From positions 1 to 18,079 of IMG/VR virus record IMGVR_UViG_2698536536_000001: a DNA stretch of 18,079 nt. One strand, 5' to 3'. Each line of letters begins with the position of its first letter. Within the stretch, counting starts at the first letter, position 1. The stretch comes from a virus. Lineage: Duplodnaviria; Heunggongvirae; Uroviricota; Caudoviricetes. The notes below the pieces were generated by a model. That model saw only the letters and a list, made by a program, of their open reading frames with translations, had not been told where the DNA came from and did not search any database. The position numbers were made by a program, and so were the translations under genes. Shown here piece by piece: positions 1 through 16,546 of the stretch.

Positions 1-318
1 ATGAAAAAGATAGCTGCTATATCATTAATTAGTATTTTTATTATGTCTGGTTGTGCTGTGCATAATGATGAGACAAGTATCGGTAAATTTGGTCTTGCAT
101 ATAAAAGTAATATTCAGCGTAAACTCGATAACCAATACTACACCGAAGCCGAAGCTTCTTTAGCCAGGGGTAGAATATCTGGTGCAGAAAATATAGTAAA
201 AAATGATGCAGCCCATTTCTGTGTTACTCAGGGCAAAAAAATGCAGATAGTTGACCTGAAGACAGAAGGTGCAGGATTACATGGCGTCACTCGTCTGACA
301 TTCAAATGTGGAGAGTGA
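1..318 (+). CDS. yegR: Small putative lipoprotein, 105 aa, host flanking gene
   Basis: Complete ORF from position 1. N-terminal signal peptide with lipobox-like IMSGC. Size and position next to the yegQ/cyaR/P2-remnant locus match my recollection of E. coli yegR; not verified by search. Confidence 0.55.
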   Translation: MKKIAAISLISIFIMSGCAVHNDETSIGKFGLAYKSNIQRKLDNQYYTEAEASLARGRISGAENIVKNDAAHFCVTQGKKMQIVDLKTEGAGLHGVTRLTFKCGE

Positions 319-476
319 GAATATTTTTTGGTAAGCGTCAAATATGCGCGTTCTGGCTGTGCGTAGCCGGAACCTGTGCGAGCACGATGCCGTTACGTGA
401 AAGGCATCGTGCTATGAAGGGAGATTCTATCGATGTGGTCAATGGAAGACGGTGACCAGGGATAGGGCTTATGCAT

Positions 477-503
477 AAAAAATAAGCCCGTGTAAGGGAG
501 ATT
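477..503. repeat. Left copy of 27-bp P2 att core (aaaaaataagcccgtgtaagggagatt)
   Basis: Exact 27-bp direct repeat of 16547..16573. It sits about 80 bp from the 3' end of int, as expected for a P2-type prophage junction. Confidence 0.8.
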
Positions 504-582
504 TAGGGTGTCACCAGTAGGGGCTTTCAACGGTACAATGCGGGTTTGAGCGGCATAAATTACCACTGAAAGCCCTTAAACG

Positions 583-1596
583 TTACTCTACTGTGGACAC
601 TGTGTGGACACTCTCGGCCTCAGTACCACCTCTTAGCGGATTAAGAGAAATGGCGTCCTGAAGGTACTCTGGCGCAAAATGAGCGTAAACCATAGTTTGC
701 TCAATCCGCGTGTGACCTAGTATCCGTTGTAGCGTGATAATACTTCCTCCATTAATCATGAAATGAGTGGCAAAGCTGTGCCTTAGTGCATGTGTGGCTT
801 GCCCCATTGGCAAATCCGGTTTTATTGCTTTCATTGTTCTTCTGAAGCGAGGGTAATCAGCATCAGGGAATAAAAAACCTCGTTTGTTATCCGCGATCAT
901 TTTGGCAACAGCCTCTGAGATCGGGACGGTGCGTGGTTTGTTTGTTTTCGTTTTAACAAACGTGACGCGGTTATGGATGATATTTTCTGCTTTCAAACGA
1001 GCTGCTTCTCCCCAACGTGCTCCTGTACTCAGGCAAAGAATCGCAATCTTTTTGTTGTCGCCGTCAAGTGCTGCAAGCAGTAAGGCAATTTCTTCCTGTG
1101 TGAGATAGCCTGTTTCTGGTTTTTCCTCCTTAAGCCTCTTTGTCCCTCTGATAGGGTGCTCACCAAAGAATAACTCCGCTTCAATCAGGGCTGTAAACAT
1201 GCCGCTAATACATGTTAAATCACGATTGATACTCGAAGGTTTAATACCCTGACTTCTTCGGGTGGCGCAGTACTGGCTGATAAGGGATTTCGTGATTTGA
1301 AATGCGCATGGGTCATTCGTTATTTTTGTGAAGATTTCAATTTTTCCAAGATTAGATTTCCCATGCTCTTCGTGTTTACCCTTTAAATCCCACCAGATCT
1401 GTGTCAGTTCCGACAGACGTCGTTTGTCTGTTGGTTTTGATAGCCATTCTTTATTGTGGTGGTTGTACAACGTGTATTTTTCGAAAGCGACAGCTTCGCT
1501 TTTCTTATCAAACTTCCTACGGATGCGTTTTCCGTTACGTCCAGTAGGGCGGATGTCCACTTCATATCGACCATCATCGAGTTTTTTGATTGCCAT
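583..1596 (-). CDS. int: P2-type tyrosine integrase, 337 aa
   Basis: C-terminal catalytic region carries R (TGARWGE), HALRHSF (H-x-x-R), LGHT and YAHF, the tyrosine-recombinase residues. Length equals the 337 aa I recall for P2 Int. It is at the prophage end next to the att core. Good SD (ggaggg) upstream of the ATG. Confidence 0.9.
   Translation of the reverse strand: MAIKKLDDGRYEVDIRPTGRNGKRIRRKFDKKSEAVAFEKYTLYNHHNKEWLSKPTDKRRLSELTQIWWDLKGKHEEHGKSNLGKIEIFTKITNDPCAFQITKSLISQYCATRRSQGIKPSSINRDLTCISGMFTALIEAELFFGEHPIRGTKRLKEEKPETGYLTQEEIALLLAALDGDNKKIAILCLSTGARWGEAARLKAENIIHNRVTFVKTKTNKPRTVPISEAVAKMIADNKRGFLFPDADYPRFRRTMKAIKPDLPMGQATHALRHSFATHFMINGGSIITLQRILGHTRIEQTMVYAHFAPEYLQDAISLNPLRGGTEAESVHTVSTVE
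592..611. promoter_or_regulatory. Putative Int arm-type binding sites, two direct TGTGGACAC repeats 11 bp apart
   Basis: tgtggacac occurs at 592..600 and 603..611, overlapping the 3' end of int. Related TGTGG(A/T)C motifs occur beside the right att core (16483..16513). Assignment as Int arm sites is inference from position. Confidence 0.4.
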
Positions 1597-1711
1597 CAGA
1601 AAACCCTCCGAGTGGTACTTTTTTTTGCTACTACTAATCGCTTTTTTCGTGGTGGCTGAAATTTAGCCACCAATAGTAGGCACTTGTGATGAATATATTC
1701 GCGATAAATTG

Positions 1712-2011
1712 TTAACCAGTCTTTTGACCGGAGTGGGGCGACGTTGTTTCGTTTTGCCCAAAGTGTGCGAGAGCGGGCGCAATTTGCCCGGCTTCTGGAG
1801 CTACCTGATCAGTCATGAACCACAAAGTATATTTAGTAAATCTGGGATGTTGTAAGACCTTCATTATGGCTTCAACTCCAGCGTTTTTTGACCGGCTCTC
1901 ATAGCTCGAAAGTGAGCTGTAGGCTACACCAGTTAATTCACTGAATTCTTTACGGTTTAACCTTTCAGATTCACGGATTAGCTTCAACTTCTCCGAAACG
2001 TCTATTGACAT
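1712..2011 (-). CDS. C: P2-type immunity repressor C, 99 aa from internal Met (ORF track starts further upstream at 2083)
   Basis: C-terminal sequence ...QIAPALAHFGQNETTSPHSGQKTG and the ...TKYTLWFMT... segment match recalled P2 C repressor. 99 aa from MSIDVSEKL. Divergent from cox, upstream of int as in P2. Confidence 0.8.
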   Translation of the reverse strand: MSIDVSEKLKLIRESERLNRKEFSELTGVAYSSLSSYESRSKNAGVEAIMKVLQHPRFTKYTLWFMTDQVAPEAGQIAPALAHFGQNETTSPHSGQKTG

Positions 2012-2132
2012 AATTACTCCGATTGCGTAATTTCTTGCTGATAGTGTGAAATGTTGCGCTTCTGGAGTTATCCTTTTAGGCAATAATTAGCCATTAGGAG
2101 CCATTAGAAGCACTAAGGGAGAATCGTAGCAG
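2012..2132. promoter_or_regulatory. Early control region between C and cox (Pc/Pe-type face-to-face promoters with operator-like repeats)
   Basis: Divergent intergenic region. Direct repeats ccattag(g/a)a at 2091..2099 and 2101..2109, and TTAG recurring with about 10-bp periodicity across 2076..2107. SD aagggaga precedes the cox ATG. Exact promoter hexamers not assigned. Confidence 0.45.
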
Positions 2133-2408
2133 ATGAATAGACAGCTTGTAAGCGTGACTGATGCCGTGCCTTATCAGGAGTTTGCAAAACTCATTGGTAA
2201 AACTCCAAGAGCTGTAAGGGGCATGATTGAGAAAGGGAAATTACCAGTTATTGAGATTACTGACCCTCAGTCAGTATCGGGGCGTGCTGGTGAATATTGG
2301 GTATACCTTCCGGCATGGAATAACGGACTAAAACTGGCTTATGAAAGCCGTCCTAAAGAGATTCGTGACGGCTGGTTGATGTGGTTAGGTCTCGGTGAAC
2401 CACGTTAA
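2133..2408 (+). CDS. cox: Cox excisionase / early transcriptional regulator, 91 aa
   Basis: Strong similarity to recalled P2 Cox (…PYQEFAKLIGK…GKLPVI…TDPQS.SGRAGEYWVYLPAWNNGLKLAYESRPKEIRDGWLMWLGLGEPR). Size and position match. Confidence 0.85.
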   Translation: MNRQLVSVTDAVPYQEFAKLIGKTPRAVRGMIEKGKLPVIEITDPQSVSGRAGEYWVYLPAWNNGLKLAYESRPKEIRDGWLMWLGLGEPR

Positions 2409-2418
2409 GGAGAACCGT

Positions 2419-2589
2419 ATGAATGAGCCTCGTTGTATTGCTCAGTTATTGCGTAACGAAAGCCCCAGGGCGATTGACTTCACCATCACCCACGGTAAGG
2501 GGCGTAAGGGAATCATTATCCGTACCAAAAAACAGAGTCCGTTAAAAAAGGCTCTGAGCTTTCTGAAAAGCCGGAGGGTCTGGAAATGA
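2419..2589 (+). CDS. Small early-region protein, P2 orf78-like position
   Basis: ORF directly after cox. Start chosen at the ATG preceded by aaggag (the ORF track starts at 2395). Function unknown. Confidence 0.45.
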   Translation: MNEPRCIAQLLRNESPRAIDFTITHGKGRKGIIIRTKKQSPLKKALSFLKSRRVWK

Positions 2590-3086
2590 CAGTGATGACA
2601 CTTAATCTCGTTGAAAAACAGCCAGCAGCTATGCGCCGGATAATTGGTAAGCATCTGGCCGTCCCTCGCTGGCAGGAGACATGCGATTATTATAATCAGA
2701 TGATGGAACGCGAACGGCTAACGGTTTGCTTCCATGCGCAGTTAAAACAGCGTCACGCAACGATGCGTTTTGAAGAAATGAACGACGTCGAACGTGAACG
2801 GCTGGTTTGTGCAATTGATGAACTGCGTGGGGCATTCTCAAAACGCCGTCAGGTCGGTGCAAGTGAGTATGCATATATTAGCTTTTTAACTGTCAGTCAG
2901 CGCCGTACTTTATTTATGCATGCCGGATTGACTGAAAAAGAATTCAACCAGCCATACTGGCGAATTAATGAAGAATCATGTTACTGGCGTGATGCCTTAT
3001 TCCGTGCATTACGTGAATTATTCAGCCTGTTTGAGTATGCACCGACAATTCTGACGTCGGTAAAACCAGAGCAATATCTGCATTAA
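2586..3086 (+). CDS. B: Replication gene B protein (helicase loader-like), 166 aa
   Basis: Position after cox/orf78 and length identical to the 166 aa I recall for P2 B. Start overlaps the preceding stop (ATGA), suggesting translational coupling. Confidence 0.75.
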   Translation: MTVMTLNLVEKQPAAMRRIIGKHLAVPRWQETCDYYNQMMERERLTVCFHAQLKQRHATMRFEEMNDVERERLVCAIDELRGAFSKRRQVGASEYAYISFLTVSQRRTLFMHAGLTEKEFNQPYWRINEESCYWRDALFRALRELFSLFEYAPTILTSVKPEQYLH

Positions 3087-3149
3087 GTAATTAACCAGAG
3101 TTTTTAACGCACTTAATTGTGCGGGGCTTCTTTTTGCCTGGAGAAAGTC

Positions 3150-3374
3150 ATGCATACAGTTTCTGAAAATCAGTGCGGTAAATACGCATTACTGCTGCAA
3201 CAGGCCAGAACCGAAGCACAGGCCGACGCAGCGACACGCTTTTCTTCTCATCTTGACGCCATGATTCGCCACATCACAAAGGCGGAGTTATCCCGCGTAG
3301 AGATAGTCGAGCTGCTCAGTCAGGAGTCGGAAAAATTTCACAATATCGGATTGTCTCGCGGGGAGGTGCTTTGA
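3150..3374 (+). CDS. Hypothetical early-region protein (P2 orf80 position)
   Basis: ORF with SD-like ggaga before the internal ATG at 3150; the ORF track starts at 3117. Synteny only. Confidence 0.45.
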
Positions 3375-3676
3375 TGTCCTGTTCTCGTTCAGTTGTATTA
3401 CTGAATAACGCCTTAAAAATCACCGTTATGAAAAATGGCGATCTATCTCTTATTCAACTTGGTCTTGATAAAGAAAAACGCGAAATAACTGAGTCTGTTA
3501 TCGCGATTTATCAGAACGAATTAAATCTCCTGTCTGATGTGGTCAATTTACTTGTTAAACGCGCTGTATTTCACAAGCAAATCTCCTCCGTGGATGAACT
3601 GACGAAATTAACGACAGAAATTGCCAGCTATTGCGCTGATGAATTTAAAAAACTGAACGACAAAAGGAACTGGTAA
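3371..3676 (+). CDS. Hypothetical early-region protein (P2 orf81 position)
   Basis: ORF whose start overlaps the previous stop. AT-richer than neighbours. Synteny only. Confidence 0.45.
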
Positions 3677-3900
3677 TGCCGGACAACGTAGATTTTATTC
3701 AGGAACAACAGGCTGAATTACTGGAGCGTCAGATTAACGCGGCAAGGGTAAAACATTGCGGAGCTTCTGCGCTGGTTTGCGAAGAGTGTGACGTGCCAAT
3801 ACCTGCTGCCCGTCGTGCGGCTTATCCGTCAGCCACGCGTTGTGTTTCCTGCCAGTCAGTCTTTGAAGCAAAAAACAAACATTACCGGAGAACGGCATGA
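3676..3900 (+). CDS. TraR/DksA-family C4 zinc-finger protein (P2 orf82 position)
   Basis: Translation contains C-x2-C-x17-C-x2-C (CEEC…17 residues…CVSC), the DksA/TraR zinc-finger spacing. 74 aa. Confidence 0.6.
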   Translation: MPDNVDFIQEQQAELLERQINAARVKHCGASALVCEECDVPIPAARRAAYPSATRCVSCQSVFEAKNKHYRRTA

Positions 3901-4172
3901 GTATTCGTATTGAAATTGGCGAACGTTATGTCGTTACCAGTGACAGCTTTCAGTTTATTCTCCACGAGAAAAAGAGAGCGGAAAGCGGTAAAAACGCCGG
4001 TCAGGAATGGCTGGCGGTGGTTGGTTATTATCCGAAATTAAGCCAGCTCGTTTCCGGCCTGATGCATCACGATATTCTGACCGGAAGCGCAAAGTCTTTT
4101 GCTGATTTAAACGCGCAGGTTGAGCAACTCAGCAGGCGTTGTTCAGAGGCTTTTGGCTCATATGGCCGTTAA
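3897..4172 (+). CDS. Hypothetical early-region protein (P2 orf83 position)
   Basis: ORF overlapping both neighbours (ATGA-type junctions). Synteny only. Confidence 0.45.
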   Translation: MSIRIEIGERYVVTSDSFQFILHEKKRAESGKNAGQEWLAVVGYYPKLSQLVSGLMHHDILTGSAKSFADLNAQVEQLSRRCSEAFGSYGR

Positions 4173-5753
4173 AGCCTCCGGGCGTTTTGTCCCTCCTTCA
4201 GCATTTGCTGCAGGCACCGGTAAGGCGTTTACCGGTGCTTATGCATGGAACGCGCCACGCGAGGCCGTCGGGCGCGAAAGACCCCTTACACGTGACGAGA
4301 TGCGTCAGGTGCAAGGTGTTTTATCCACGATTAACCGCCTGCCTTACTTTTTGCGCTCGCTGTTTACTTCACGCTATGACTACATCCGGCGCAATAAAAG
4401 CCCGGTATTGAGCGTTACGCCGCCGCAGAGGGTGATGTGGGGATGTTTATCACGCTGACCGCGCCGTCAAAGTATCACCCGACTCGTCAGGTCAGAAAAG
4501 GCGAAAGTAAAACCGTTCAGCTTAATCACGGCTGGAACGATGAGGCATTTAATCCAAAGGATGCGCAGCGTTATCTCTGTCGTATCTGGAGCCTGATGCG
4601 CACGGCATTCAAGGATAATGATTTACAGGCCTACGGTTTGCGTGTCGTTGAGCCACACCACGACGGAACGCCGCACTGGCATATGATGCTTTTTTGTAAT
4701 CCACGCCAGCGTAACCAGATTATTGAAATCATGCGTCGCTATGCGCTCAAAGAGGATGGCGACGAAAGAGGAGCCGCGCGAAACCGTTTTCAGGCAAAAC
4801 ACCTTAACCGGGGCGGTGCTGCGGGGTATATCGCGAAATACATCTCAAAAAACATCGATGGCTATGCACTGGATGGTCAGCTCGATAACGATACCGGCAG
4901 ACCGCTGAAAGACACTGCTGCGGCTGTTACCGCATGGGCGTCAACGTGGCGCATCCCACAATTTAAAACGGTTGGTCTGCCGACAATGGGGGCTTACCGT
5001 GAACTACGCAAATTGCCTCGCGGCGTCAGCATTGCTGATGAGTTTGACGAGCGCGTCGAGGCTGCACGCGCCGCCGCAGACAGTGGTGATTTTGCGTTGT
5101 ATATCAGCGCACAGGGTGGGGCAAATGTCCCGCGCGATTGTCAGACTGTCAGGGTCGCCCGTAGTCCGTCGGATGAAGTTAACGAGTACGAGGAAGAAGT
5201 CGAGAGAGTGGTCGGCATTTACGCGCCGCATCTCGGCGCGCGTCATATTCATATCACCAGAACGACGGACTGGCGCATTGTGCCGAAAGTTCCGGTCGTG
5301 GAGCCTTTGGCTTTAAAAAGCGGCATCGCCGCGCCTCGGAGTCCTGTCAATAACTGTGGAAAGCTCACCGGTGGTGATACTTCGTTACCGGCTCCCACAC
5401 CTTCTGAGCACGCCGCAGCAGTGCTTAATCTGGTAGATGACGGTGTTATCGAATGGAATGACCAGGAGGTCGTGAGGGCGCTCAGAGGTGCATTAAAACA
5501 CGGTCTGAGAAGACCAAACCGTCAGCAAAGAAACGGAAGCCCGTTAAAACCGCATGAAATAGCGCCATCGGCCAGACTGACCCGGTCGGAACGAATGCAA
5601 ATTACCCGTATCCGCGTTGACCTTGCTCAGAACGGTATCAGGCCGCAGCGATGGGAGCTTGAGGCGCTGGCGCGTGGTGCAATTGTGAACTATGGCGCAA
5701 AAGAATTTCATTACCATGTTCAGAAGGCGTGGGAAGCATTTTCGAGGTGGTAA
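4162..5753 (+). pseudogene. A: Rolling-circle replication initiator gene A, apparently frameshifted
   Basis: N-terminal frame MAVKASGRF… from 4162 ends at 4458. The C-terminal frame opens at 4398 and runs to 5753. The two frames are reconciled by a 1-nt change in the A4 run at 4396..4399. The C-terminal part carries an HUH motif (HHDGTPHWHMMLF) and a two-tyrosine motif (YIAKYISK). The combined length of about 530 aa is shorter than the roughly 760 aa I recall for P2 A. Confidence 0.7.
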
Positions 5754-5863
5754 TCTAAATATGAAAAATCTGCACACCGAAACACTCTTGTAGGTTGATA
5801 ATTTGCAAACTAGGTGGATTTACTCTTTGATGTGTAAGAAGTTATACTACAAAAAATTGATTT

Positions 5864-6784
5864 ATGGGCTTGGCGATGTATAACGATCCTTATAGTGACC
5901 CAAAAGCGTGGGAATCATATTTCAAAAATATTGTTTGGCTACATTATAAGCCTGCTAACTGTTGTGACTTGCCAGATGAGCATGGAGGCGACTTTGGGCT
6001 GGAGTGTTACACTCTGAGTGGTCATGTTTTTCAGTGTTACTTGCCTGAGCAGTCGAGTGATATTGATAAGCTTTATAAAGCGCAACAAAAAAAGATTTAT
6101 ACTGATATAAAAAAGTTTTCTCAGGATAACATTAAAGAATTAGAGGAGCTTTTTGGCACATTAAAAATTAGCCGCTGGATATTAGCTACACCATATAATA
6201 AATCGGCGAAATTAAGTCAATATTGCACAAAAAAATCATTAAAAGTAAGAGAGTTAGGGATTTCTTACGTTGCTGATGATTTTCAAATAGTAGTGCAAAC
6301 AGATCGAAATTATATAGAAGAAGCGTTCTTTCTTCGCAAAAATAACTATCAATTAAGCTTTAATATAAATGATGCGACGGCTGAGAATGCTGCTAACTTT
6401 ATTAGTGAAAATACATCTTTTTTAGATAAGCTAAATTTAAAATTACCTAAGATAAATGATGATGTATCTAGGCAGGGTTTATATAGAGAGTTTTTAATAC
6501 AAAAATATCTTGATTATCAAAACTTGCTGGATGCTTTGAAGAGAGACTGGGTTGATATCTATGAAATTATCTATAACTGTGTTCAACATAGAGAACGTAA
6601 TTTGGTAGGTCTCTTTCTTCTTACTTCATCAGATGCGAAACCATCAGATATAATGAAAGATGAAATCGCTTTGTTAAAGAAATGTATTGAAGAGGAAGTT
6701 AGTACGCTTAAACAGGCTGACTTGGATAAGATAACATGGGGAGTTATTTCTGATTGGCTTATAAGATGCCCTTTAGATTTTTAG
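5864..6784 (+). CDS. Cargo gene 1: unknown 306-aa protein, candidate effector of a defence operon
   Basis: Long ORF in a sharply AT-rich block directly after A, in the P2 tin/old hotspot position. N-terminal Cys/His-rich patch (NCCDLPDEHGGDFGLECYTLSGHVFQCY). No motif assignable by eye. Confidence 0.6.
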   Translation: MGLAMYNDPYSDPKAWESYFKNIVWLHYKPANCCDLPDEHGGDFGLECYTLSGHVFQCYLPEQSSDIDKLYKAQQKKIYTDIKKFSQDNIKELEELFGTLKISRWILATPYNKSAKLSQYCTKKSLKVRELGISYVADDFQIVVQTDRNYIEEAFFLRKNNYQLSFNINDATAENAANFISENTSFLDKLNLKLPKINDDVSRQGLYREFLIQKYLDYQNLLDALKRDWVDIYEIIYNCVQHRERNLVGLFLLTSSDAKPSDIMKDEIALLKKCIEEEVSTLKQADLDKITWGVISDWLIRCPLDF

Positions 6785-6785
6785 A

Positions 6786-7262
6786 ATGGAAAAGCAAATG
6801 CATATAACGATAGATGAAATAATAGGAAGGCCGTTTACGTTTAATAAACGACCTGAACATTTGCCATGTGATATGAGACCATTGTGGCGTTGCAGTTTGT
6901 TGCTGATAATATTCCTTGTCACAGGGAGAGCTGGTTGCTGTTCTTTAAAAAAACTTCATTTAATTAATTGGATGTTAAAGTCAGAGAATAATGAAGCAAT
7001 GTTTGAATTCTGGCTTTTAAACAAAGAAGGTTTAAAGCCTGAAGTAAGATTGGATCCAACTTTAGATAGAGCAATACAGCTATTATTAGCAGAGGATTTT
7101 ATTTTGAGAAATGAACGAGCGTTCAAAATAAATGAAAAGGGGCTTAAGGTCGCTGAGAAATTGCTTTCTCTTGATGTGTTCAAAGAAGAAAGGTTGGTGC
7201 TAAATAAACATAAGGCTGGACTGTCCGAAACTAACATTAATAAAATATTTCAGGTGGGTTAA
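6786..7262 (+). CDS. Cargo gene 2: unknown 158-aa protein
   Basis: Starts 2 bp after the gene 1 stop and ends 1 bp before gene 3. Same AT-rich composition. Contains one hydrophobic stretch (LWRCSLLLIIFLVTG). Confidence 0.55.
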   Translation: MEKQMHITIDEIIGRPFTFNKRPEHLPCDMRPLWRCSLLLIIFLVTGRAGCCSLKKLHLINWMLKSENNEAMFEFWLLNKEGLKPEVRLDPTLDRAIQLLLAEDFILRNERAFKINEKGLKVAEKLLSLDVFKEERLVLNKHKAGLSETNINKIFQVG

Positions 7263-7263
7263 T

Positions 7264-9285
7264 ATGTCGTTGGAAATTATTTCATTGGAGTTAGTAGCAA
7301 ATACTTCGGATGGGCGTTATGGTGTTAGTATACCTTTTTCAAATGGCTTGTTTTTATTAAGAGTTGAGAATTCTCATGGTAAATCAACTTGCATGAATGG
7401 GATTGCATATGCACTTGGGATGGAAAAGGCATTAGGTGTCGGTTCTGGAAAAATCCCATTCCCTCCATCTTTGACTAGAGCACTAACGACAAAAGATAAT
7501 GTTGAAGTTAGTGTAATATCATCTTATGTTTTGCTAAAAATAAAGAATCATAAGGGAATAGAAGCATCTTTGAAAAGGAATATTATCGGTCACGATAATA
7601 ATAATGTTATTTATATAGATGAGAAGAATAATGTAAAAAGTAAGAGTGGTACTTATTTTTTACATAGAGAGGGCGATACTGAAAGGGAACGTGGTTTCTA
7701 TAAGTGGTTAGCTGATTTTATAGGTTGGAGTTTGCCAAATGTTCCAAACCATAATGGGAAGGACACTATTCTTTATCCATCCGTACTTTTCCCTGCATGG
7801 TATGTTGAGCAAAAAAAAGGATGGTCGTCAATTATGGCGACTGTACCAACACAATTTGGAATTAAAGAGCCAAAGAAAAGAGCTCTAGAATTTTTAATGT
7901 CTCTTGATGTTAATGATAATATTTTATTGCGTAGTTCGTTAAGAAATGAACTTGATATTATTTATCATGATTGGAAGTTAATTAAACACAATGCAGAAGT
8001 TATTGCTTCTAAATTGTCGTCAGTTGTCACAGGGATTCCTGAACAACCAGTGGCAAAATTTGATCATTATAAGATAGATTTGATTATTAAAAATGGTAGT
8101 GTCGTTAGATCTATTGTTGATGTTCGTAATGAACTGGAAAAAGAGTTGCAAGAAATTAAGTTTGACACTCTTGGTGAGCAAGAAGAACAAACTTTACAAT
8201 TATCAGTGGTTAAGTTATTAGGTCAAAAAAATGATGAAATTAACTCTCTGGAATTAAAGATTAAAGAGATTTGTGAGCATAGAAGTTATATTCAATATCA
8301 AATTCAGGCGACCAAAAACAGATTGTATAATCTGTTGGAAGATAAAAGGAAGTATGAAGATTTAAAGAAAATATCATCTTCGGATGCGTATAAGTCAACA
8401 GATTTAATGTCAAATATTTGTCCGACTTGTGGTGCAAGTTATAATGATAATTTGCTAAGTTTTTCATCGCAAGAAAATCTGATGACATATGAAGATAGTT
8501 TGAACTTTATTAAAGAGCAAGTAAAAGCATTTGAGTTTGTTCTGTCGGATAGTGAAAAGCAATTAAAGCTTAAAGATGTTGAGAGGAGTGATTTAGAGGG
8601 GGAAATAGCCAAGATTAGAGTTGATATTAATGCATTAAGGGAGTCAAAATATCCCTCAATGGTTGTTCAGGAGGAGTTTCTGAGACGTAAAATAAACATT
8701 GAGAATAAAATTAATGCCATTAACGATGGCATTAAAAGTATATTGGACATTAGACTGGAGTTGGATTCATTACACCGTAGATATAAAAAGCTTATCGCGA
8801 AAAGAAAAGGGTTGCCAGATAATTTCTTGTCGCGTAATGATGCCGATAAGTTAAAATTTCTTAATAAAGAAGTCGTTGCACGATTAGAAAAATATAATTT
8901 TACAAGTTTTGATTCTAAACTTGTGTCAATATCAGAAGATAATTACTTACCTACTAGGGAAGGATATGATATAGGTTTTGACACATCAGCTAGTGATGGA
9001 ATAAGAATCATTTGGGGTTATTTAATAAGTTTATTTGTTGTTGGTTCTAAATTTCAAACAAATCACCCTGGATTGATTGTGTTTGATGAGCCTCGTCAAC
9101 AAGAAGCAAATAAAGTAAGTTTTGCCGAGTTACTTAAAGATGCTGCAGAAACAACAAAAGGACAAGGGCAGATCATTTTTGCTACATCAGAAGATGAAAA
9201 TGTCTTAAAAGAGGCATTAGAAGGGTATGACTATACAATGATATCCTTTGATAAGAACAATGGGAAATTGTTGAGGAAATTATAA
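7264..9285 (+). CDS. Cargo gene 3: SMC/Rad50-like ABC ATPase with coiled-coil arms, 673 aa
   Basis: N-terminal Walker A-like P-loop VENSHGKST (about 7366..7389). Long K/E/L-rich heptad-like middle region. CPTC motif at 8419..8430 near the middle of the coiled coil. C-terminal Walker B/D-loop GLIVFDEP (about 9071..9094). Confidence 0.75.
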   Translation: MSLEIISLELVANTSDGRYGVSIPFSNGLFLLRVENSHGKSTCMNGIAYALGMEKALGVGSGKIPFPPSLTRALTTKDNVEVSVISSYVLLKIKNHKGIEASLKRNIIGHDNNNVIYIDEKNNVKSKSGTYFLHREGDTERERGFYKWLADFIGWSLPNVPNHNGKDTILYPSVLFPAWYVEQKKGWSSIMATVPTQFGIKEPKKRALEFLMSLDVNDNILLRSSLRNELDIIYHDWKLIKHNAEVIASKLSSVVTGIPEQPVAKFDHYKIDLIIKNGSVVRSIVDVRNELEKELQEIKFDTLGEQEEQTLQLSVVKLLGQKNDEINSLELKIKEICEHRSYIQYQIQATKNRLYNLLEDKRKYEDLKKISSSDAYKSTDLMSNICPTCGASYNDNLLSFSSQENLMTYEDSLNFIKEQVKAFEFVLSDSEKQLKLKDVERSDLEGEIAKIRVDINALRESKYPSMVVQEEFLRRKINIENKINAINDGIKSILDIRLELDSLHRRYKKLIAKRKGLPDNFLSRNDADKLKFLNKEVVARLEKYNFTSFDSKLVSISEDNYLPTREGYDIGFDTSASDGIRIIWGYLISLFVVGSKFQTNHPGLIVFDEPRQQEANKVSFAELLKDAAETTKGQGQIIFATSEDENVLKEALEGYDYTMISFDKNNGKLLRKL

Positions 9286-9408
9286 ACTTTTATGTTGCTG
9301 CATTAGAATGCATGATTATTGTTTATCTGTTAAGAGTGCTCCGTGCCAGTGTCGGCGCGGAGAAATCATGTCATGCACCTGCATTAAAACCGACCCATGA
9401 AGCGGGCG

Positions 9409-9427
9409 GGCGAGGCGGGGAAAGCAC
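9409..9427. other. Putative cos site (19-nt cohesive end ggcgaggcggggaaagcac)
   Basis: Matches the P2 cohesive-end sequence as I recall it. Lies in the GC-rich intergenic region between the hotspot cargo and Q, where cos sits in P2. Confidence 0.55.
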
Positions 9428-9565
9428 TGCGCGCTGGCGGTGGTGCTGATTTTATTTTCCAGCGTCTCAGCGCGTCGTGACGGCGCTTAGTCTGCCCGTT
9501 GGGGGTTGGTGTGTCTGCGGGGTGTTTTGTGCGGTGGTGAGCGAGTGAGGGCGTGATGACGGGGT

Positions 9566-9589
9566 ATAAAAAAGCCGCCCGCAGGCGGC
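9566..9589 (-). terminator. Rho-independent terminator downstream of Q
   Basis: Minus-strand hairpin gccgcc-tgcg-ggcggc (stems at 9574..9579 and 9584..9589) followed by a U-run (a-run 9566..9573 on the plus strand), directly 3' of the Q stop. Confidence 0.5.
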
Positions 9590-9594
9590 GATGT

Positions 9595-10629
9595 TCAGCC
9601 GTTGTCAGTGTCCAGTGAGTAGTTTTTAAAGCGGATGACCTCCTGACCGAGCCAGCCGTTTATCTCGCGGATCCTGTCCTGTAGCGGGATAAGCTCATTG
9701 CGGACAAAGACCTTTGCCACTTTCTCAATATCACCCAGCGACCCGACGTTCTCCGGCTTGCCGCCCATCAACTGAAAGGGGATGCGGTGCGCGTCCAGCA
9801 GGTCAGCGGCGCTGGCTTTTTTGATATTAAAAAAATCGTCCTTCGTTGCCACTTCACTGAGCGGGATAATTTTGATGCCGTCGGCTTTCCCCTGTGGGGC
9901 ATAGAGAAACAGATTTTTAAAGTTGTTGCGGCCTTTCGACTTCACCATGTTTTCGCGGAGCATTTCGATATCGTTGCGATCCTGCACGGCATCAGTGACG
10001 TACATGATGTATCCGGCATGAGCGCCGTTTTCGTAATACTTGCGGCGGAACAGTGTGGCTGATTCATTCAGCCAGGCAGAATTAAGGGCGCTGAGATATT
10101 CCGGCAGGCCGTACAGCTCCTGATTGATATCCGGCTCCAGCAGGTGAAACACGGAGCCGGGCGTGAAGGCTGTCGGCTCGTTGAAGGACGGCACCCACCA
10201 GTAAACATCCTCCTCCACGCCACGGCGGGTATATTTTGCCGGTGAGGTTTCCAGTCTAATGACCTTACCGGTGGTGCTGTAACGCTTTTCCAGAAACGCA
10301 TTACCGAACACCAGAAAATCCAGCACAAAGCGGCTGAAATCCTGTTGCGAAAGCCACGGATGCGGGATAAATGTCGAGGCCAGAATATTGCGTTTAACGT
10401 AAATCGGTGAGCTGTGATGCACGGCAGCACGCAGGCTTTTCGCCAGACCGGTAAAGCTGACCGGCGGCTCATACCATCTGCCGTTACTGATGCACTCGAC
10501 GTAATCCAGAATGTCACGGCGGTCGAGTACCGGCACCGGCTCACCAAAGGTGAAAGCCTCCATTTTCGGGGCGCTGGCGGTCATTTTTTTTGCCTCAGGT
10601 TGCGGTGTTTTCCCTTTTTTCTTGCTCAT
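9595..10629 (-). CDS. Q: Portal (capsid) protein Q, 344 aa
   Basis: 344 aa, the length I recall for P2 Q. N-terminus MSKKKGKTPQP… Adjacent to cos and in P2 orientation. Confidence 0.85.
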   Translation of the reverse strand: MSKKKGKTPQPEAKKMTASAPKMEAFTFGEPVPVLDRRDILDYVECISNGRWYEPPVSFTGLAKSLRAAVHHSSPIYVKRNILASTFIPHPWLSQQDFSRFVLDFLVFGNAFLEKRYSTTGKVIRLETSPAKYTRRGVEEDVYWWVPSFNEPTAFTPGSVFHLLEPDINQELYGLPEYLSALNSAWLNESATLFRRKYYENGAHAGYIMYVTDAVQDRNDIEMLRENMVKSKGRNNFKNLFLYAPQGKADGIKIIPLSEVATKDDFFNIKKASAADLLDAHRIPFQLMGGKPENVGSLGDIEKVAKVFVRNELIPLQDRIREINGWLGQEVIRFKNYSLDTDNG

Positions 10630-10940
10630 CAGTAAAACTCCAGAATGGTGGATGTCAGCGGAGTGCTGATACCGGCGGTGAGTGGCTCATTTAACAGGGC
10701 GTGCATGGTTGCCCAGGCGAGGTCGGCGTGGCTGGCTTCCTCGCTGCGGCTGGCCTCATAGGTGGCGCTGCGTCCGCTGCTGGTCATGGTCTTGCGGATA
10801 GCCATAAACGAGCTGGTGATGTCGGTGGCGCTGACGTCATATTCCAGACAGCCACGGCGGATAACGTCTTTTGCCTTGGCCGACATCGTGCTCAACAGTA
10901 CGCAGGCGTCTTTCTGTACCGAATACCGCGTCGTGACCGG
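10629..10940 (-). pseudogene. P: 3' remnant of terminase large-subunit gene P, truncated by deletion
   Basis: Open frame whose stop overlaps the Q start (ATGA), as for P-Q in P2, but only about 100 codons remain before it collides with gene I on the opposite strand. Upstream boundary is approximate. Homology to P not verified. Confidence 0.4.
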
Positions 10941-10948
10941 AGGCTCGG

Positions 10949-11479
10949 ATGAGTGATTCGCGACTGCTGCCGACCGGCTCATCACCGCTTGAGGTCGCCG
11001 CCGCAAAAGCCTGTGCGGAAATTGAAAAAACGCCGGTCAGTATTCGTGAGCTGTGGAACCCGGACACCTGTCCGGCAAATCTGCTGCCGTGGCTGGCGTG
11101 GGCGTTTTCGGTCGACAGGTGGGATGAAAAGTGGCCGGAAGCGACAAAACGCGCCGTTATCCGCGATGCGTATTTCATCCACTGTCATAAGGGCACTATC
11201 GGTGCAATCCGGCGTGTGGTGGAGCCGCTCGGCTATCTCATCAACGTGACGGAGTGGTGGGAAAACAGTGACCCGCCAGGCACCTTCCGGCTTGATATTG
11301 GTGTTCTGGAAAGTGGCATCACAGAGGCAATGTATCAGGAAATGGAACGGCTGATTGCTGATGCCAAACCTGCAAGCCGTCACCTTATTGGCCTGAACAT
11401 TACCCGGGACATTCCCGGCTACCTGTTCGCCGGTGGTGTGGCTTACGACGGCGATGTAATTACGGTTTACCCCGGATAA
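10949..11479 (+). CDS. I: Baseplate assembly protein I, 176 aa
   Basis: 176 aa with sequence matching recalled P2 gpI (MSDSRLLPTGSSPLEVAAAKA…). SD ggagg upstream. Immediately followed by H. Confidence 0.8.
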   Translation: MSDSRLLPTGSSPLEVAAAKACAEIEKTPVSIRELWNPDTCPANLLPWLAWAFSVDRWDEKWPEATKRAVIRDAYFIHCHKGTIGAIRRVVEPLGYLINVTEWWENSDPPGTFRLDIGVLESGITEAMYQEMERLIADAKPASRHLIGLNITRDIPGYLFAGGVAYDGDVITVYPG

Positions 11480-11489
11480 GTGAGGAATA

Positions 11490-13700
11490 ATGAGCACAAA
11501 ATTCAGAACCGTTATCACCACTGCCGGTGCAGCAAAGCTGGCAGCGGCAACCGCGCCGGGAGGGCGGAAGGTCAACATTACCACGATGGCCGTCGGGGAT
11601 GGCGGTGGTAAATTGCCTGTCCCGGATGCCGGACAGACCGGGCTTATCCATGAAGTCTGGCGACATGCGCTGAACAAAATCAGCCAGGACAAACGAAACA
11701 GTAATTATATTATCGCAGAGCTGGTTATTCCGCCGGAGGTGGGCGGTTTCTGGATGCGTGAGCTTGGCCTGTACGATGATGCGGGAACATTAATTGCCGT
11801 GGCGAACATGGCCGAAAGTTATAAGCCAGCTCTTGCCGAAGGCTCAGGGCGTTCGCAGACCTGTCGCATGGTCATCATCGTCAGCAGTGTGGCCTCAGTG
11901 GCGCTGACCATTGACACCACAACGGTGATGGCGACGCAGGATTACGTTGATGACAAAATTGCAGAGCATGAACAGTCACGACGTCACCCGGACGCCTCGC
12001 TGACCGCAAAAGGTTTTACTCAGTTAAGCAATGCGACCAACAGCACGTCTGAAACACTGGCCGCAACGCCGAAAGCGGTAAAGGCCGCGTATGATCTTGC
12101 TAACGGGAAATACACTGCGCAGGATGCCACCACAGCGCGAAAAGGCCTTGTCCAGCTCAGTAGCGCCACCAACAGCACGTCTGAAACGCTCGCCGCAACA
12201 CCAAAAGCGGTAAAGGCAGCATATGACCTGGCTAACGGGAAATATACCGCACAGGACGCCACCACAGCGCGAAAAGGCCTTGTCCAGCTCAGTAGCGCCA
12301 CCAACAGCGATTCTGAAACGCTTGCGGCAACGCCAAAGGCGGTAAAAGCAGCATATGACCTTGCTAACGGGAAATACACTGCACAGGATGCCACCACGGC
12401 GCGAAAAGGTCTTGTCCAGCTCAGTAGCGACACCAACAGTGATTCTGAAACGCTGGCCGCAACACCAAAAGCGGTGAAGTCTGCCTATGACAATGCTGAA
12501 AAACGTCTTCAGAAAGATCAGAACGGTGCGGATATTCCGGGAAAGGATACCTTCACGAAAAATATCGGTGCCTGTCGTGCTTATAGCGGTGCTTTGAGCA
12601 CTGAAGCCGGAAACTGGACAACCGCTCAGTTTATTGACTGGCTAGAGTCTCAGGGAGCCTTTAATCATCCCTACTGGATGTGCAAGTGTTCCTGGTCATA
12701 CGGTAATAACAAAATTATTACCGATACTGACTGTGGGACGATTCATCTTGCAGGTTGCGTGATTGAGGTTATGGGCGTTAAAGCAGCAATGACCATTCGT
12801 GTGACCACTCCGAGTACATCAAGCGGTGGTGGTACCACCAGTGCGCAATTCACGTATATCAATCACGGAGCTGATTATGCGCCGGGCTGGCGACGCGACT
12901 ACAATACGAAAAATAAGCAACCGGCTTTTGCATTAGGGAAAACAGGAAATACGGTTGCAAATAATAAAGCGGTAGGATGGAACTGGGACAGTGGTGCTTA
13001 TTGTGCAAAGGATGGCGGAGCATCCAAAATGGTGCTGCATTTTTACACGGGTGAGGGAAGTTGTCCGGCAATGCAGTTTCTTGTGGATTATAAAAACAGG
13101 GGGATTTTTTACAGGTCGGCACGTGATTGGTATGGATTTGAGGCTGACTGGTCAGAGTTTTATACCACATCACGAAAGCCAACACCTGCGGATATTCTTG
13201 CTCTGGCATTATCAGGTGGAAGCATGTCAGGCAGCATAAAATTTATCAATGATGCCTTCCTGATTTGGGAAAGAAACACTGATTGGGCGAAAATTGGATT
13301 TAAAAATGATTCAGATGCTGATTCTGACTCATACATGTGGTTTGAAACTGGTGATAATGGCAATGAATATTTTAAATGGCGCATCAGGTCTGGCAGCACA
13401 ACAAAAGATCTGATGACGCTTAAGTCTGATGCACTACGGGTTACCGGGCAGGTGATACCATCAAATTTCAGCAATTTTGACTCCCGCTATGTCCGGGATA
13501 TCCGGCTTGGTGGTGCCGCCACATACAAACCTGCGAACAATGGCATGACATGGACACATCAGGCACCGTCCGGGTGTGTATATACCGGCATTATTGTTCA
13601 GGATACCGGCTCAAACTCTGCCGATAACATTGGTGGCGTATATTACAGACCGGTTCAGAAATACATTAACGGGACGTGGTACAACGTGGCGCAGGTATAA
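11490..13700 (+). CDS. H: Tail fibre protein H, 736 aa, with internal tandem repeats
   Basis: Conserved P2-type N-terminus (MSTKFRTVITTAGAAKLAAA…). Central 44-aa tandem repeats. C-terminal part is lower in GC and presumably the receptor-binding region. SD gagga upstream. Followed by G. Confidence 0.85.
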   Translation: MSTKFRTVITTAGAAKLAAATAPGGRKVNITTMAVGDGGGKLPVPDAGQTGLIHEVWRHALNKISQDKRNSNYIIAELVIPPEVGGFWMRELGLYDDAGTLIAVANMAESYKPALAEGSGRSQTCRMVIIVSSVASVALTIDTTTVMATQDYVDDKIAEHEQSRRHPDASLTAKGFTQLSNATNSTSETLAATPKAVKAAYDLANGKYTAQDATTARKGLVQLSSATNSTSETLAATPKAVKAAYDLANGKYTAQDATTARKGLVQLSSATNSDSETLAATPKAVKAAYDLANGKYTAQDATTARKGLVQLSSDTNSDSETLAATPKAVKSAYDNAEKRLQKDQNGADIPGKDTFTKNIGACRAYSGALSTEAGNWTTAQFIDWLESQGAFNHPYWMCKCSWSYGNNKIITDTDCGTIHLAGCVIEVMGVKAAMTIRVTTPSTSSGGGTTSAQFTYINHGADYAPGWRRDYNTKNKQPAFALGKTGNTVANNKAVGWNWDSGAYCAKDGGASKMVLHFYTGEGSCPAMQFLVDYKNRGIFYRSARDWYGFEADWSEFYTTSRKPTPADILALALSGGSMSGSIKFINDAFLIWERNTDWAKIGFKNDSDADSDSYMWFETGDNGNEYFKWRIRSGSTTKDLMTLKSDALRVTGQVIPSNFSNFDSRYVRDIRLGGAATYKPANNGMTWTHQAPSGCVYTGIIVQDTGSNSADNIGGVYYRPVQKYINGTWYNVAQV
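12010..12495. repeat. Tandem coding repeats inside H, 132-bp unit, about 3.7 copies
   Basis: Units begin at about 12036, 12168, 12300 and 12432. They are roughly 90% identical, differing mainly at third codon positions, and encode ATNSTSETLAATPKAVKAAYDLANGKYTAQDATTARKGLVQLSS. Confidence 0.85.
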
Positions 13701-13703
13701 TTT

Positions 13704-14231
13704 ATGCAGCATTTGATAAATATAACGGCAGGTAATCCAAAAACGGTTGAACAATATCAATTGACAAAGGACTTTGATGTTGTCTGGTTTTTTTCAGAAG
13801 ATGGTAAGAACTGGTACGAAGAACAAAAGTATTTTGCTGATGACACGATAAAAATAGCGTACGACAAAGATAATATTATCCGCTATGTGGAAAAGGATGT
13901 GACAGCTATCAGACCGGATGGATTAAGTGTGGTTGAAGTGGTGGATATTACTGCTAATCGACGGGCGGACATTTCAGGGAACTGGATGTTTAAGGACGGC
14001 AAAGTGATTAAACGCATTTATACGGCAGAGGAATTGCGGCAGCAGGCAGAAAACCGGAAAGCCAGACTTCTTGCAGATGCTGAATCCGTGATTTTGCCGC
14101 TGGAGCGCGCGGTCAGACTGAACATGGCAACAGATGAGGAGCGTAGCCGACTGGAAGCATGGGAACGCTACAGCGTTCTGGTCAGTCGTGTGGAGCCTGC
14201 AAATCCTGAATGGCCGGAAATGCCGCAATAA
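13704..14231 (+). CDS. G: Tail fibre assembly protein G, 175 aa
   Basis: 175 aa, directly downstream of H as in P2. Start is 3 bp after the H stop. Confidence 0.8.
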
Positions 14232-14412
14232 GTTGTATGAGCTTACATATCTATTGCGTAGAGTAAAGCATAATCTGACAGTCCGCTCTGTGCCAGAAGC
14301 GGACGTAGCGGCAGCATACATAACCTTATGATTTCTTAAAATTTTCCGCTTGGTTTCTGATTGACTAATGAAAATTAATTGAAATTATAAAGCATTCGCA
14401 GTAACTTGTGCG

Positions 14413-14658
14413 GTGCCGATAATTTCATTCTACCCAATATCATTTATGATTGTAGATAAGAGTAGTGAAAAATATAACAACGGATATAGTGTTGCAATAC
14501 CACTTGGAGCCGTGAAAATGGAACTGGCCGATGATGTACTAAAAATAAACCTTTCATCATGGAATGATATTAAAACAGGATTTCCTTACACAGGGATTAA
14601 TGAGTATGAGTTACTCATATTAGATGAGAATCTTTCATTTATAACTTATAAAAAATAA
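14413..14658 (+). CDS. Hypothetical small protein in the Z/fun hotspot position (start uncertain)
   Basis: AT-rich ORF between G and FI. The ORF-track start is a GTG; an alternative ATG lies at 14446. No clear SD. No recognisable motif. Confidence 0.3.
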   Translation: MPIISFYPISFMIVDKSSEKYNNGYSVAIPLGAVKMELADDVLKINLSSWNDIKTGFPYTGINEYELLILDENLSFITYKK

Positions 14659-14713
14659 CAATTAACAATACTTCACTTATGTGTGAGTGGTTTTAAAGAG
14701 TAAATAATTCATA

Positions 14714-15016
14714 ATGGAAAAAAGTATGACAATTGAAACCATAAAAATACTAGCGGCAATTAGTAGCATCATTGGTTCTATGATTCTTGCCTATCGAGTT
14801 ACAGGGATTCTTGCAGCACTTTCTCTTGCAATAGATTGCCATGAAGAAAACATTAAACAATTAATGCCAACCAATAAGGGGGATGTTTATTATCTCGCAA
14901 ATGCAACTACGCACGTTAAAAATGCGCAAAAGAAACCGCTTCTAATCACGGGGTTTATCTTTCTAATTGCATCTGGTTTTTTGCAGTTTACAGCGTTGAT
15001 AATGGCAAATATTTAA
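14714..15016 (+). CDS. Small membrane protein, about 100 aa with two predicted transmembrane helices
   Basis: Hydrophobic segments IKILAAISSIIGSMILAY…GILAALSLAI and LLITGFIFLIASGFLQFTALIMANI. AT-rich. Followed by a terminator at 15186..15213. Confidence 0.5.
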   Translation: MEKSMTIETIKILAAISSIIGSMILAYRVTGILAALSLAIDCHEENIKQLMPTNKGDVYYLANATTHVKNAQKKPLLITGFIFLIASGFLQFTALIMANI

Positions 15017-15185
15017 CAATGGAATGATACCACCGGTGGTGCGGCTGAAACGATTTGTACGTCATTTAAGCCGCATCGAAATTTAAAGTAACGTCCGCAA
15101 TTCGCTCCAAGCAGACTGTCAGATTTGATAGCGTTTTGGCTATGTAAATTGTCAGTCGGAAAATGAGTGAATACAAATCAGGACA

Positions 15186-15213
15186 GGCGGGCTGATTGCC
15201 CGCCTTTTCTTTA
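15186..15213 (+). terminator. Rho-independent terminator after the Z/fun-position cargo
   Basis: Hairpin ggcgggc-tgatt-gcccgcc followed by ttttcttt. Confidence 0.55.
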
Positions 15214-15308
15214 TCTGTTGTTTCATCCCCTGACCAGCCAGGTCAAATAGCGTCTCATGCTCTGCACAACAGAAAATAGTTGCACCCATTAACCACGGAG
15301 TTAAACGG

Positions 15309-16145
15309 ATGAGTGACTATCATCACGGCGTGCAGGTGCTGGAGATTAACGACGGCACCCGCGTCATTTCCACCGTATCCACTGCCATTGTCGGCATGGT
15401 CTGCACGGCCAGCGATGCGGATGCGGAAACCTTTCCCCTCAATAAACCTGTGCTGATTACCAATGTGCAGAGCGCAATTGCAAAGGCCGGTAAAAAAGGC
15501 ACGCTGGCGGCGTCGCTGCAGGCCATCGCCGACCAGTCAAAACCGGTCACCGTTGTTGTGCGCGTGGAAGACGGCACCGGCGACGACGAGGAAACGAAAC
15601 TTGCGCAGACCGTTTCCAATATCATCGGCACCACCGACGAAAACGGTCAGTACACCGGCGTAACGGCAAAGTGGTTACACACCAAAGACCCGAAGCCGCA
15701 AAAGCAGAAGGTAAAACTGAAACGCAAAAAGAAAGAAAAACACCTGCGCGCACTGGAGCACCCGAAAGCGAAACCGGTCACGCAGAAGAAAGCGCCAAAA
15801 GTACCGGAAGCGCGCGAAGGTGAATACATGGCCGGTGAAGCTGACAACGTTTTTGCCCTGACTACGGTATATGCCACGAAAGCACAGGCCATGCGCGCCG
15901 CTCAGGCGAAGTGGGATAAACTGCAACGGGGCGTTGCGGAGTTCTCCATCAGCCTTGCCACTGGTCGTGCTGATATTTACACGGAAACACCGGTCAGAGT
16001 GTCAGGCTTTAAGCGCGTCATAGACGAGCAGGACTGGACCATCACTAAGGTGACACATTTTCTGAATAATAGCGGCTTCACGACGTCCTTGGAGCTTGAG
16101 GTCAGGCTTTCTGATGTGGAGTACGAAACAGAAGATGATGAGTAA
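15309..16145 (+). pseudogene. In-frame fusion remnant: tail sheath FI N-terminus joined to tail protein D C-terminus (yegZ-like)
   Basis: First ~118 residues ([14 protein letters not shown]…TDENGQYTG) match the recalled P2 FI sheath N-terminus. The C-terminal ~100 residues lie immediately upstream of ogr, where gene D ends in P2. The two are joined by a Lys-rich linker. FII, E, T, U and most of FI and D are missing. Confidence 0.65.
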
Positions 16146-16226
16146 TGTTTTTATTTTATCTGTTTGTTTTATAAGGATAAATTAACTAAAATGGCACCGT
16201 CAACAAAACCGGAAGAGGTGCTCGCG

Positions 16227-16445: not shown

Positions 16446-16457
16446 TTACAAACAGAA

Positions 16458-16482
16458 AGCCCCTCAGTCGAGGGGCTTTTTT
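16458..16482 (+). terminator. Rho-independent terminator of ogr
   Basis: Hairpin agcccct-cagtcg-aggggct followed by tttttt. Confidence 0.6.
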
Positions 16483-16513
16483 GTCGATGTGGTCAATGTG
16501 TGGACGTGACCAG
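16483..16513. promoter_or_regulatory. Arm-type repeat region next to the right att core (tgtggtcaa / tgtggacgt)
   Basis: Sequence gtcgatgtggtcaatgtgtggacgtgaccag contains two TGTGG(A/T)C motifs. A close copy of this segment also occurs at 429..458 in the left flank. Confidence 0.4.
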
Positions 16514-16546
16514 AAATAAATCCTTTTATTTCAATTTGTTGTACGT

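Follow-up and report, generated by a model that had tools for sequence, protein, structure and literature searches.

Systems of the Lamassu family, including the Mrr type of Escherichia coli SE15, act by abortive infection and require an effector domain, LmuC and the ATPase LmuB (Millman et al. 2022). In Cap4-type Lamassu (DdmABC of Vibrio cholerae and LmuACB of Salmonella; PDB entries 9nxx, 9ny1, 9hr5, 9hqx and 9uxi), cryo-electron microscopy shows that two LmuB coiled coils, together with LmuC, hold a single LmuA via its C-terminal domain. This LmuA is let go in response to DNA ends or phage replication origins, and the free protein tetramerises via the same C-terminal surfaces, so that two nuclease domains are juxtaposed and DNA cleavage becomes active. 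Here we describe a three-gene cassette in the viral record IMGVR_UViG_2698536536_000001 (positions 1 to 18,079, the whole stretch being called the window below), whose carrier is a P2-like prophage of E. coli that has decayed. The first gene of the cassette, lmuA, encodes the effector of a type II Lamassu of the 'short' kind, which bears a zinc hook and has the gene order lmuA-lmuC-lmuB. Taken as a whole, the explanation that we consider probable is that its product is an Mrr-type nuclease, first sequestered and then released, by which the system aborts infection.

Identity and distribution of the cassette

PADLOC recognises all three genes, the first by the LmuA model PDLC03852 (E=1.1e-29, residues 12-299), the second by the LmuC model PDLC03871 (E=2.5e-23) and the third by the LmuB model PDLC03863 (E=1.1e-98, residues 1-669). 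The genes are co-directional, tightly packed and abutting, lmuC starting 2 nt past the lmuA stop codon (in RefSeq it starts at 6798, which gives 154 amino acids, aa), and the cassette has a guanine plus cytosine (GC) content of 32% against about 54% in its flanks. The lmuC product also has a weak match to Pfam HTH_45, while the translation of lmuB contains a Walker A motif (HGK40ST), a zinc-hook motif (CPTC) and a Walker B motif (LIVFDE), and its length of 673 aa fits the "short" Lamassu class. An SMC/Rad50-like LmuB, a small LmuC between the other two genes, a two-domain LmuA and a conserved co-directional operon are features of type II Lamassu, and all of them are found here; with every testable feature present, the cassette is filed under Lamassu.

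The open reading frame (ORF) of lmuA, 306 aa long, and a stretch rich in cysteine and histidine at residues 32-59, NCCDLPDEHGGDFGLECYTLSGHVFQCY, are present exactly as a first-pass annotation of the window had described them, although the true start is probably the ATG at 5876 (Met5), as it is in nearly all homologues and in the RefSeq model (WP_024174129, 302 aa). That annotation took the gene to encode the effector in a defence operon of the SMC type, in which it was right, as both PADLOC and the LmuA structures found by Foldseek (below) indicate. Its view that no motif can be assigned to the protein holds for searches of Pfam, NCBIfam and PDB sequences, in which the single protein and the family profiles gave only noise-level matches, but not for PADLOC, which identifies LmuA. 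The only PHROGs match is to a family without an assigned function, a megablast search against a phage collection gave no match, and no significant match came from the BFVD viral fold library. The new effector domain that had been anticipated is not new, since the family already falls under a PADLOC LmuA model that recognises validated Lamassu-Mrr effectors. Existing defence profiles recognise the system, and the validation of its subtype was done in a distant relative; the clade to which it belongs is uncharacterised and deep-branching.

Rousset et al. flagged LmuC as '1 TM', the hydrophobic stretch being LWRCSLLLIIFLVTGRAGCC. Since the protein matches the LmuC profile and has a weak winged-helix match, a buried helix is a likelier reading of this stretch than a membrane anchor. 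As to the identity of the cassette, Rst_3HP ("hp+hp+hp", pFR109), a system validated by the same authors, was also considered and rejected, as the sequences are absent from their cloned-systems table.

The three genes travel together. In hand-checked loci of Leptolyngbya, P. aeruginosa and Pseudoalteromonas two genes, of about 155 aa and about 675 aa, come after the lmuA homologue. A scan restricted to one genome per species kept 80 loci, 68 of them with at least 2.6 kb downstream, and in these an LmuC-like ORF (66/68) and an LmuB-like ORF (65/68) lie directly downstream on the same strand. Three loci have no LmuB-like ORF; two of these (L055 and L070) match LmuA only partly, and the third is L020. 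We describe the linkage of the genes as obligate. Bacterial hosts belong to the Gammaproteobacteria, Cyanobacteria, Acidobacteriota, Planctomycetota, Bacteroidota, Firmicutes and Actinobacteria. The same lmuA-lmuC-lmuB module, with an LmuA that has the tyrosine variant discussed below, was also observed in three Methanosarcina loci (L033, L043 and L045), so that the clade spans the boundary between bacteria and archaea. Within E. coli, an identical cassette is present in 32 of 5,426 complete genomes, always on the chromosome and always annotated as three hypothetical proteins; the copy in the window is intact and about 100% identical to those of the other strains.

Fold and conserved residues of LmuA

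An AlphaFold2 model of LmuA, built on a 48-sequence alignment, is confident (mean predicted local distance difference test score, pLDDT, 88.7; predicted template modelling score, pTM, 0.74) and divides the protein into an N-terminal nuclease-like domain and a helical C-terminal domain. The former has the topology α-β-β-β-α-β-α-β, made up of helix α1 (residues 13-28), strands at 33-35, 48-50 and 54-58, helix α2 (67-97), a strand at 102-108, a helix at 115-130 and a strand at 136-145, and contains the αβββαβ core of restriction endonucleases. When the model was compared with the PDB by Foldseek, as the first-pass annotation had proposed, the full-length LmuA structures 9nxx and 9hr5 came out on top (E=2e-4 to 1e-3, probability 0.97-1.0), in alignments that span both domains at an identity of just 8-11%. 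All seven tabulated fold matches are PD-(D/E)xK nucleases, namely the FokI cleavage domain (fold-match figure 9.1), V. cholerae LmuA (9nxx; 9.0), the CdiA-CT EC869 DNase (8.7), N.BspD6I (8.6), LlaBIII (8.1), AF1548, which represents Mrr_cat (8.1), and the Avs4 nuclease (7.4).

A HMMER scan of 1.84 billion representatives yielded 911 LmuA clusters (50% identity) at E≤1e-3 and 466 at E≤1e-30, with a length of about 300 aa in almost all of the 150 matches listed. Conservation was counted in 151 LmuA representatives that are mutually at most 50% identical and that reach down to 22-33% identity to the window protein. G42, D43, Q57 and K77 are kept in every one of them, and G45, K84 and K193 in 150 each; D81 is kept in 148 and Q74 in 122. 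Position 47 is Glu in 137 representatives and Asp in 14, position 17 on α1 is Glu in 68 and Gln in 74, and position 59 is Tyr in 145, Phe in six and never Lys. The acidic residue at the start of β2 and the D/E/Q residue on β3 are thus both represented, by D43, E47 and Q57. The core proposed by the first-pass annotation, a degenerate PD-(D/E)xK nuclease, was correct as to fold, both in the model and in its fold matches, and incorrect as to motif: it had read P37-D38 … E47-x-Y49 as the signature, a candidate that we rejected, since D38 is kept in 101 representatives and is Ala or Ser in 48, and position 49 is Tyr in 30 and Phe in 119. The homologue alignment that it recommended as a way of finding invariant Cys, His, Asp and Glu residues picks out D43 and, as Glu or Asp, E47, and none of the Cys or His residues of the putative metal site.

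From this pattern we infer an active site composed of D43, E47 and Q57 together with K77. The latter, on α2, is a candidate for a relocated catalytic lysine and probably supplies positive charge in place of the β3 lysine. It is proposed as the substitute because it is invariant on α2, because the β3 lysine is gone, and because there is a precedent in Pa4535 (1y0k), where the lysine has left β3 and is found on the second core α-helix, so that the motif reads PD-EXX-K (Steczkiewicz et al. 2012). K77 sits one helical turn before D81, at a place where canonical Mrr-LmuA has no conserved residue.

Conservation extends to the end of the protein. The tail D297-W298-L-I-R301-C302-P-L-D-F306 (6752-6781 in the window) is near-invariant, W298 being kept in 145/146 and C302 in 146/146 aligned relatives, and K193 (codon at 6440-6442) stands at the start of the C-terminal domain. 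The tail and K193 are likely candidates for an interface, either for docking to LmuB and LmuC or for oligomerisation, and by analogy with the Cap4-type complexes the C-terminal domain as a whole would be a putative docking and oligomerisation module.

In order to establish what the model PDLC03852 stands for we used two Mrr-LmuA sequences in Table S2 of Millman et al. 2022, from E. coli O150:H5 SE15, whose system was validated as an abortive-infection defence, and from B. cereus 172560W, whose system is marked there as without defence in the assay. These two proteins match PDLC03852 at 1e-105 and 1e-112, the best model for SE15 LmuC is PDLC03871, and that for the LmuB of a close SE15 relative is PDLC03863; since the best PADLOC models are the same, all three window proteins fall under the Lamassu-Mrr profile set. 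In an alignment of canonical Mrr-LmuA the invariant positions are G80-D81-x-G83-R-D85, Q104-C105-K106, E120 and K123, along with F-E53-R-F…E58-W59 on α1. An unguided MAFFT profile-profile alignment of the N-terminal domains places E17, D43, G45 and E47 of the window clade on E53, D81, G83 and D85, the triplet Q57-C58-Y59 on Q104-C105-K106, and D81 and K84 on E120 and K123, with all motifs co-linear. Read in this way, the window clade has the Mrr-style D…Q-x-K configuration with the lysine changed to tyrosine. Both clades share the gene order, the signature [FW]-E-x-[FY]…G-D-x-G-x-[DE]…Q-C-x followed by [DE]-I-x-K on α2, and a short LmuB with a CxxC hook. They differ in that the window clade has Q-C-Y where SE15 has Q-C-K, that its LmuA has 302 rather than 375 aa and is without the N-terminal extension of about 40 aa, and that its LmuB is longer (673 against 622 aa).

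Other described nucleases are further away. The likeness to Cap4-LmuA, at 8-11% identity, is structural only: the window LmuA has no match to Pfam Cap4/DUF4297 (PF14130), and in a search of PDB sequences with it no Cap4-LmuA chain was matched even at E≤10. Cap4-LmuA has the canonical catalytic lysine (K57 or K68), whereas the window LmuA has none on β3, and the zinc hook of the window LmuB, CPTC, is lacking in V. cholerae LmuB. Mrr_cat nucleases (E. coli Mrr; AF1548, 1y88; the N-terminal nuclease of Avs4, 8dgf) differ in that the window LmuA does not match PF04471 and has a tyrosine in place of the Q-x-K lysine. The FokI cleavage domain (2fok), at 8% identity, has a canonical D…D-x-K and a fused DNA-recognition domain and does not belong to an SMC system. 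Pa4535 resembles the window LmuA in the very shift of the lysine from β3 to α2 that is proposed for K77.

Proposed mechanism and its alternatives

The course of events that we propose is modelled on the Cap4-type complexes. The LmuB dimer and LmuC would grip the C-terminal domain of LmuA, with its …DWLIRCPLDF tail, and so keep LmuA monomeric and inactive. LmuB would sense phage DNA ends or replication intermediates, upon which LmuA would be freed and would oligomerise through its C-terminal domain, bringing nuclease domains into pairs. In each N-terminal nuclease domain, D43 and E47 on β2 and Q57 on β3 would act, helped by E/Q17 on α1 and by K77, D81 and K84 on α2, and the paired LmuA would then degrade DNA indiscriminately and abort the infection.

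Several observations weigh against this explanation. A catalytic lysine two residues past the β3 D/E/Q was looked for in the 151 representatives and found in none, about half of the family has Gln in place of the α1 glutamate, and mutation of the hallmark lysine (K57A or K68A) kills Cap4-type LmuA. As the β3 lysine is missing from sequences throughout the clade, the activity of the window LmuA is not guaranteed. The relation to the Mrr type is also a distant one. Comparisons of the window clade with canonical Mrr-LmuA by hmmsearch (against SE15 and B. cereus) and by hhalign were not significant, and BLASTP of LmuB and of LmuC between the two clades was almost empty. Pfam Mrr_cat (PF04471) has no match in the window LmuA or its relatives at E≤1. 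The canonical Lamassu-Mrr family, which is of the ABC-3C REase-CTD6 and MC2 type, carries both CTD6 (PF20282), in LmuA, and MC2 (PF20288), in LmuC, and neither matched the window proteins or 48 and 56 family members at E≤0.1-1. The link to Mrr is thus confined to shared PADLOC models, fold and a motif-level alignment; the window clade is a relative that branches off deeply and happens to come within reach of the PADLOC models, and its LmuA is called Mrr-like here, not a member of Pfam Mrr_cat. Finally, the cassette was catalogued, not cloned, by Rousset et al. 2022.

One may therefore consider explanations other than an Mrr-type DNase. The N-terminal domain could be a degenerate pseudo-nuclease that binds DNA or serves as a scaffold, with killing or protection achieved by another route, such as clamping of DNA by LmuB or recruitment of a host nuclease. 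The replacement of the β3 Q-x-K lysine by Tyr or Phe in 151/151 representatives is what one would expect in that case, as is the Gln found at the α1 acid in 74/151, and effector-poor Lamassus do exist, since Haudiquet et al. describe a short-Lamassu clade that 'seemingly lost the effector domain'. However, D43, Q57 and K77 are absolute, and E47, D81 and K84 nearly so, down to 22-33% identity, and because residues of active-site type are so strictly kept the site appears to be a maintained catalytic site rather than a decaying one. The shift of the lysine to α2 has a precedent, moreover, and the domain has been retained at full size and is confidently folded. We regard a pseudo-nuclease as unlikely. 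Slightly less likely still, in our estimation, is an active enzyme of the PD-(D/E)xK fold whose substrate is something other than bulk double-stranded DNA (RNA or tRNA, single-stranded DNA or a specific structure), possibly with Tyr59 as a catalytic residue. The near-invariance of Tyr59 (145/151) at the position of the catalytic lysine would fit such an enzyme, and tRNA-splicing endonucleases use a Tyr/His/Lys site on the same fold. Yet six representatives have Phe there, so that the hydroxyl must be dispensable, the family has no invariant His, the conserved residues occupy the canonical metal-binding positions on β2 and β3 and not the opposite edge of the sheet, and the closest fold matches as well as the related validated effectors are DNases. 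A site of the tRNA-splicing-endonuclease kind was accordingly rejected, there being no invariant His and Tyr59 being replaceable by Phe.

The patch of Cys and His residues, which the first-pass annotation had offered as a metal-binding site, can be judged by the same representatives. Six of the 12 Cys and His residues of LmuA fall within the 28 positions of the patch, and because shuffled LmuA sequences reach such a density rarely (P≈0.012, for the maximum count in any 28-residue window), the local enrichment in the window protein is real. A structural or catalytic metal (zinc) site nevertheless seems to us very improbable and was rejected, since C33, C34, C48 and H54 are almost never kept (in one, two, 10 and 16 of the 151 representatives, respectively). 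H40 is kept in 74, and the only common one, C58, is kept in 124 and is Ala, Ser or Met in 24. Such a lack of conservation is the outcome that the annotation itself had named as speaking against its proposal. In the model, too, the patch residues lie on strands of the nuclease core and form no knuckle or loop arrangement. The Cys/His richness is therefore a trait of the enterobacterial lineage and not a metal site. An Mrr-type nuclease held in check by LmuB and LmuC remains the explanation that we prefer.

The prophage and the wider meaning of the cassette

The features of the window are collected in Table 1. To the left of the cassette lies the 3' part of the P2 replication gene A and to the right the P2 portal gene Q, which places the cassette in a defence hotspot that Rousset et al. 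2022 defined, gpA-gpQ (old/tin). The hotspot catalogue of these authors lists the exact LmuA and LmuC, as "hypothetical + hypothetical + hypothetical".

Table 1. Coordinates of features in the 18,079-nt window
Feature	Position	Strand	Basis
Integrase	583..1596	-	
Left flank: 3' part of P2 replication gene A, 438-aa ORF	4437..5753	+	phrog_91, E=1.9e-199
Candidate sigma70-like promoter, TTTACT-18-TATACT, upstream of lmuA	5819..5848	+	Consensus scan alone, 9/12 matches; weak
lmuA, Lamassu effector gene	5864..6784	+	ATG-started ORF, 306 aa; PADLOC LmuA; Foldseek LmuA structures
LmuA N-terminal PD-(D/E)xK (Mrr-like) nuclease domain, residues ~1-165	5864..6358	+	AlphaFold2 model, fold matches
LmuA core catalytic-type motif G42-D43-F-G45-L-E47 … Q57-C58-Y59, β2-β3 hairpin	5987..6040	+	Conserved part of the patch
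LmuA α2 polar face, Q74, K77, D81, K84	6083..6118	+	Conserved
LmuA helical C-terminal domain, residues ~170-306	6371..6781	+	AlphaFold2 helices at 173-301
lmuC, small winged-helix-like middle component, 158 aa	6786..7262	+	PADLOC LmuC
lmuB, SMC/Rad50-like ATPase sensor, 673 aa	7264..9285	+	PADLOC LmuB
Right flank: P2 portal gene Q	9595..10629	-	TIGR01540, E=6e-75; phrog_68
Terminase remnant, C-terminal, ~125 aa	10629..11006	-	
Tail/baseplate gene fragment	10949..11479		phrog_48
Tail-fibre protein, 736 aa	11490..13700		
Low-GC stretch (~39%)	14232..15308		
ORF with two hydrophobic segments, 100 aa	14714..15016	+	No PHROG match
Chimeric sheath/gpD ORF	15309..16145		phrog_23, phrog_11242; phrog_52

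The prophage is flanked, at window positions 1-318 and 16718-18079, by yegR and by a yegQ-like gene for a peptidase of the U32 family, and its attachment region is the same as in E. coli strain PSUO2 (yegS/yegR side). In comparison with the intact PSUO2 prophage, gene A (3480-5753, junction at about 4405) has lost about 680 bp in an internal deletion that shifts the frame (positions 5026-5704 of that locus, L001, are missing), so that only its C-terminal ORF stays open. Homology to the PSUO2 prophage stops at 10878, within the gene of the terminase large subunit, and the terminase remnant joins the tail/baseplate fragment directly; because the terminase is truncated and joined to tail genes, the prophage is defective. 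A further ORF is chimeric, its first ~120 aa matching N-terminal families of the tail sheath and its residues 109-277 the C-terminus of a gpD-like tail protein (phrog_52), which indicates another internal deletion that removed most tail genes. The low-GC stretch, which occupies the place of the Z/fun accessory locus of P2, is bounded by a tail-fibre assembly gene and this sheath remnant, and the small ORF in it could be another accessory or exclusion gene. A unit of about 43 aa (…ATNSTSETLAATPKAVKAAYDLANGKYTAQDATTARKGLVQLSS…) occurs in about four tandem copies in the tail-fibre protein.

This P2-like prophage, decaying and yet equipped with an intact defence cassette, illustrates the domestication of prophage hotspots. 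With the assignment made here, three RefSeq "hypothetical proteins" become a recognisable Lamassu defence system, in E. coli and in many other phyla, and its effector gains an assigned fold and a list of testable residues. The loss of the textbook lysine, combined with an invariant lysine on the adjacent helix, makes a clean test case for plasticity of the active site in PD-(D/E)xK immune nucleases, and serves as a warning that motif screens for "ExK/QxK" will miss the Tyr-variant LmuA clade. More tentatively, and as something that we rate at a little short of an even chance, this widespread clade of ~300-aa LmuA proteins may be a functional nuclease in which the lysine has moved permanently from β3 to α2 (Q-x-Y … K77), and may also be the effector-less short-Lamassu clade of Haudiquet et al. 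If so, it would represent an undescribed active-site configuration for an immune effector, and the clade that was scored as having 'lost the effector domain', should it be the same one, would keep a cryptic nuclease.

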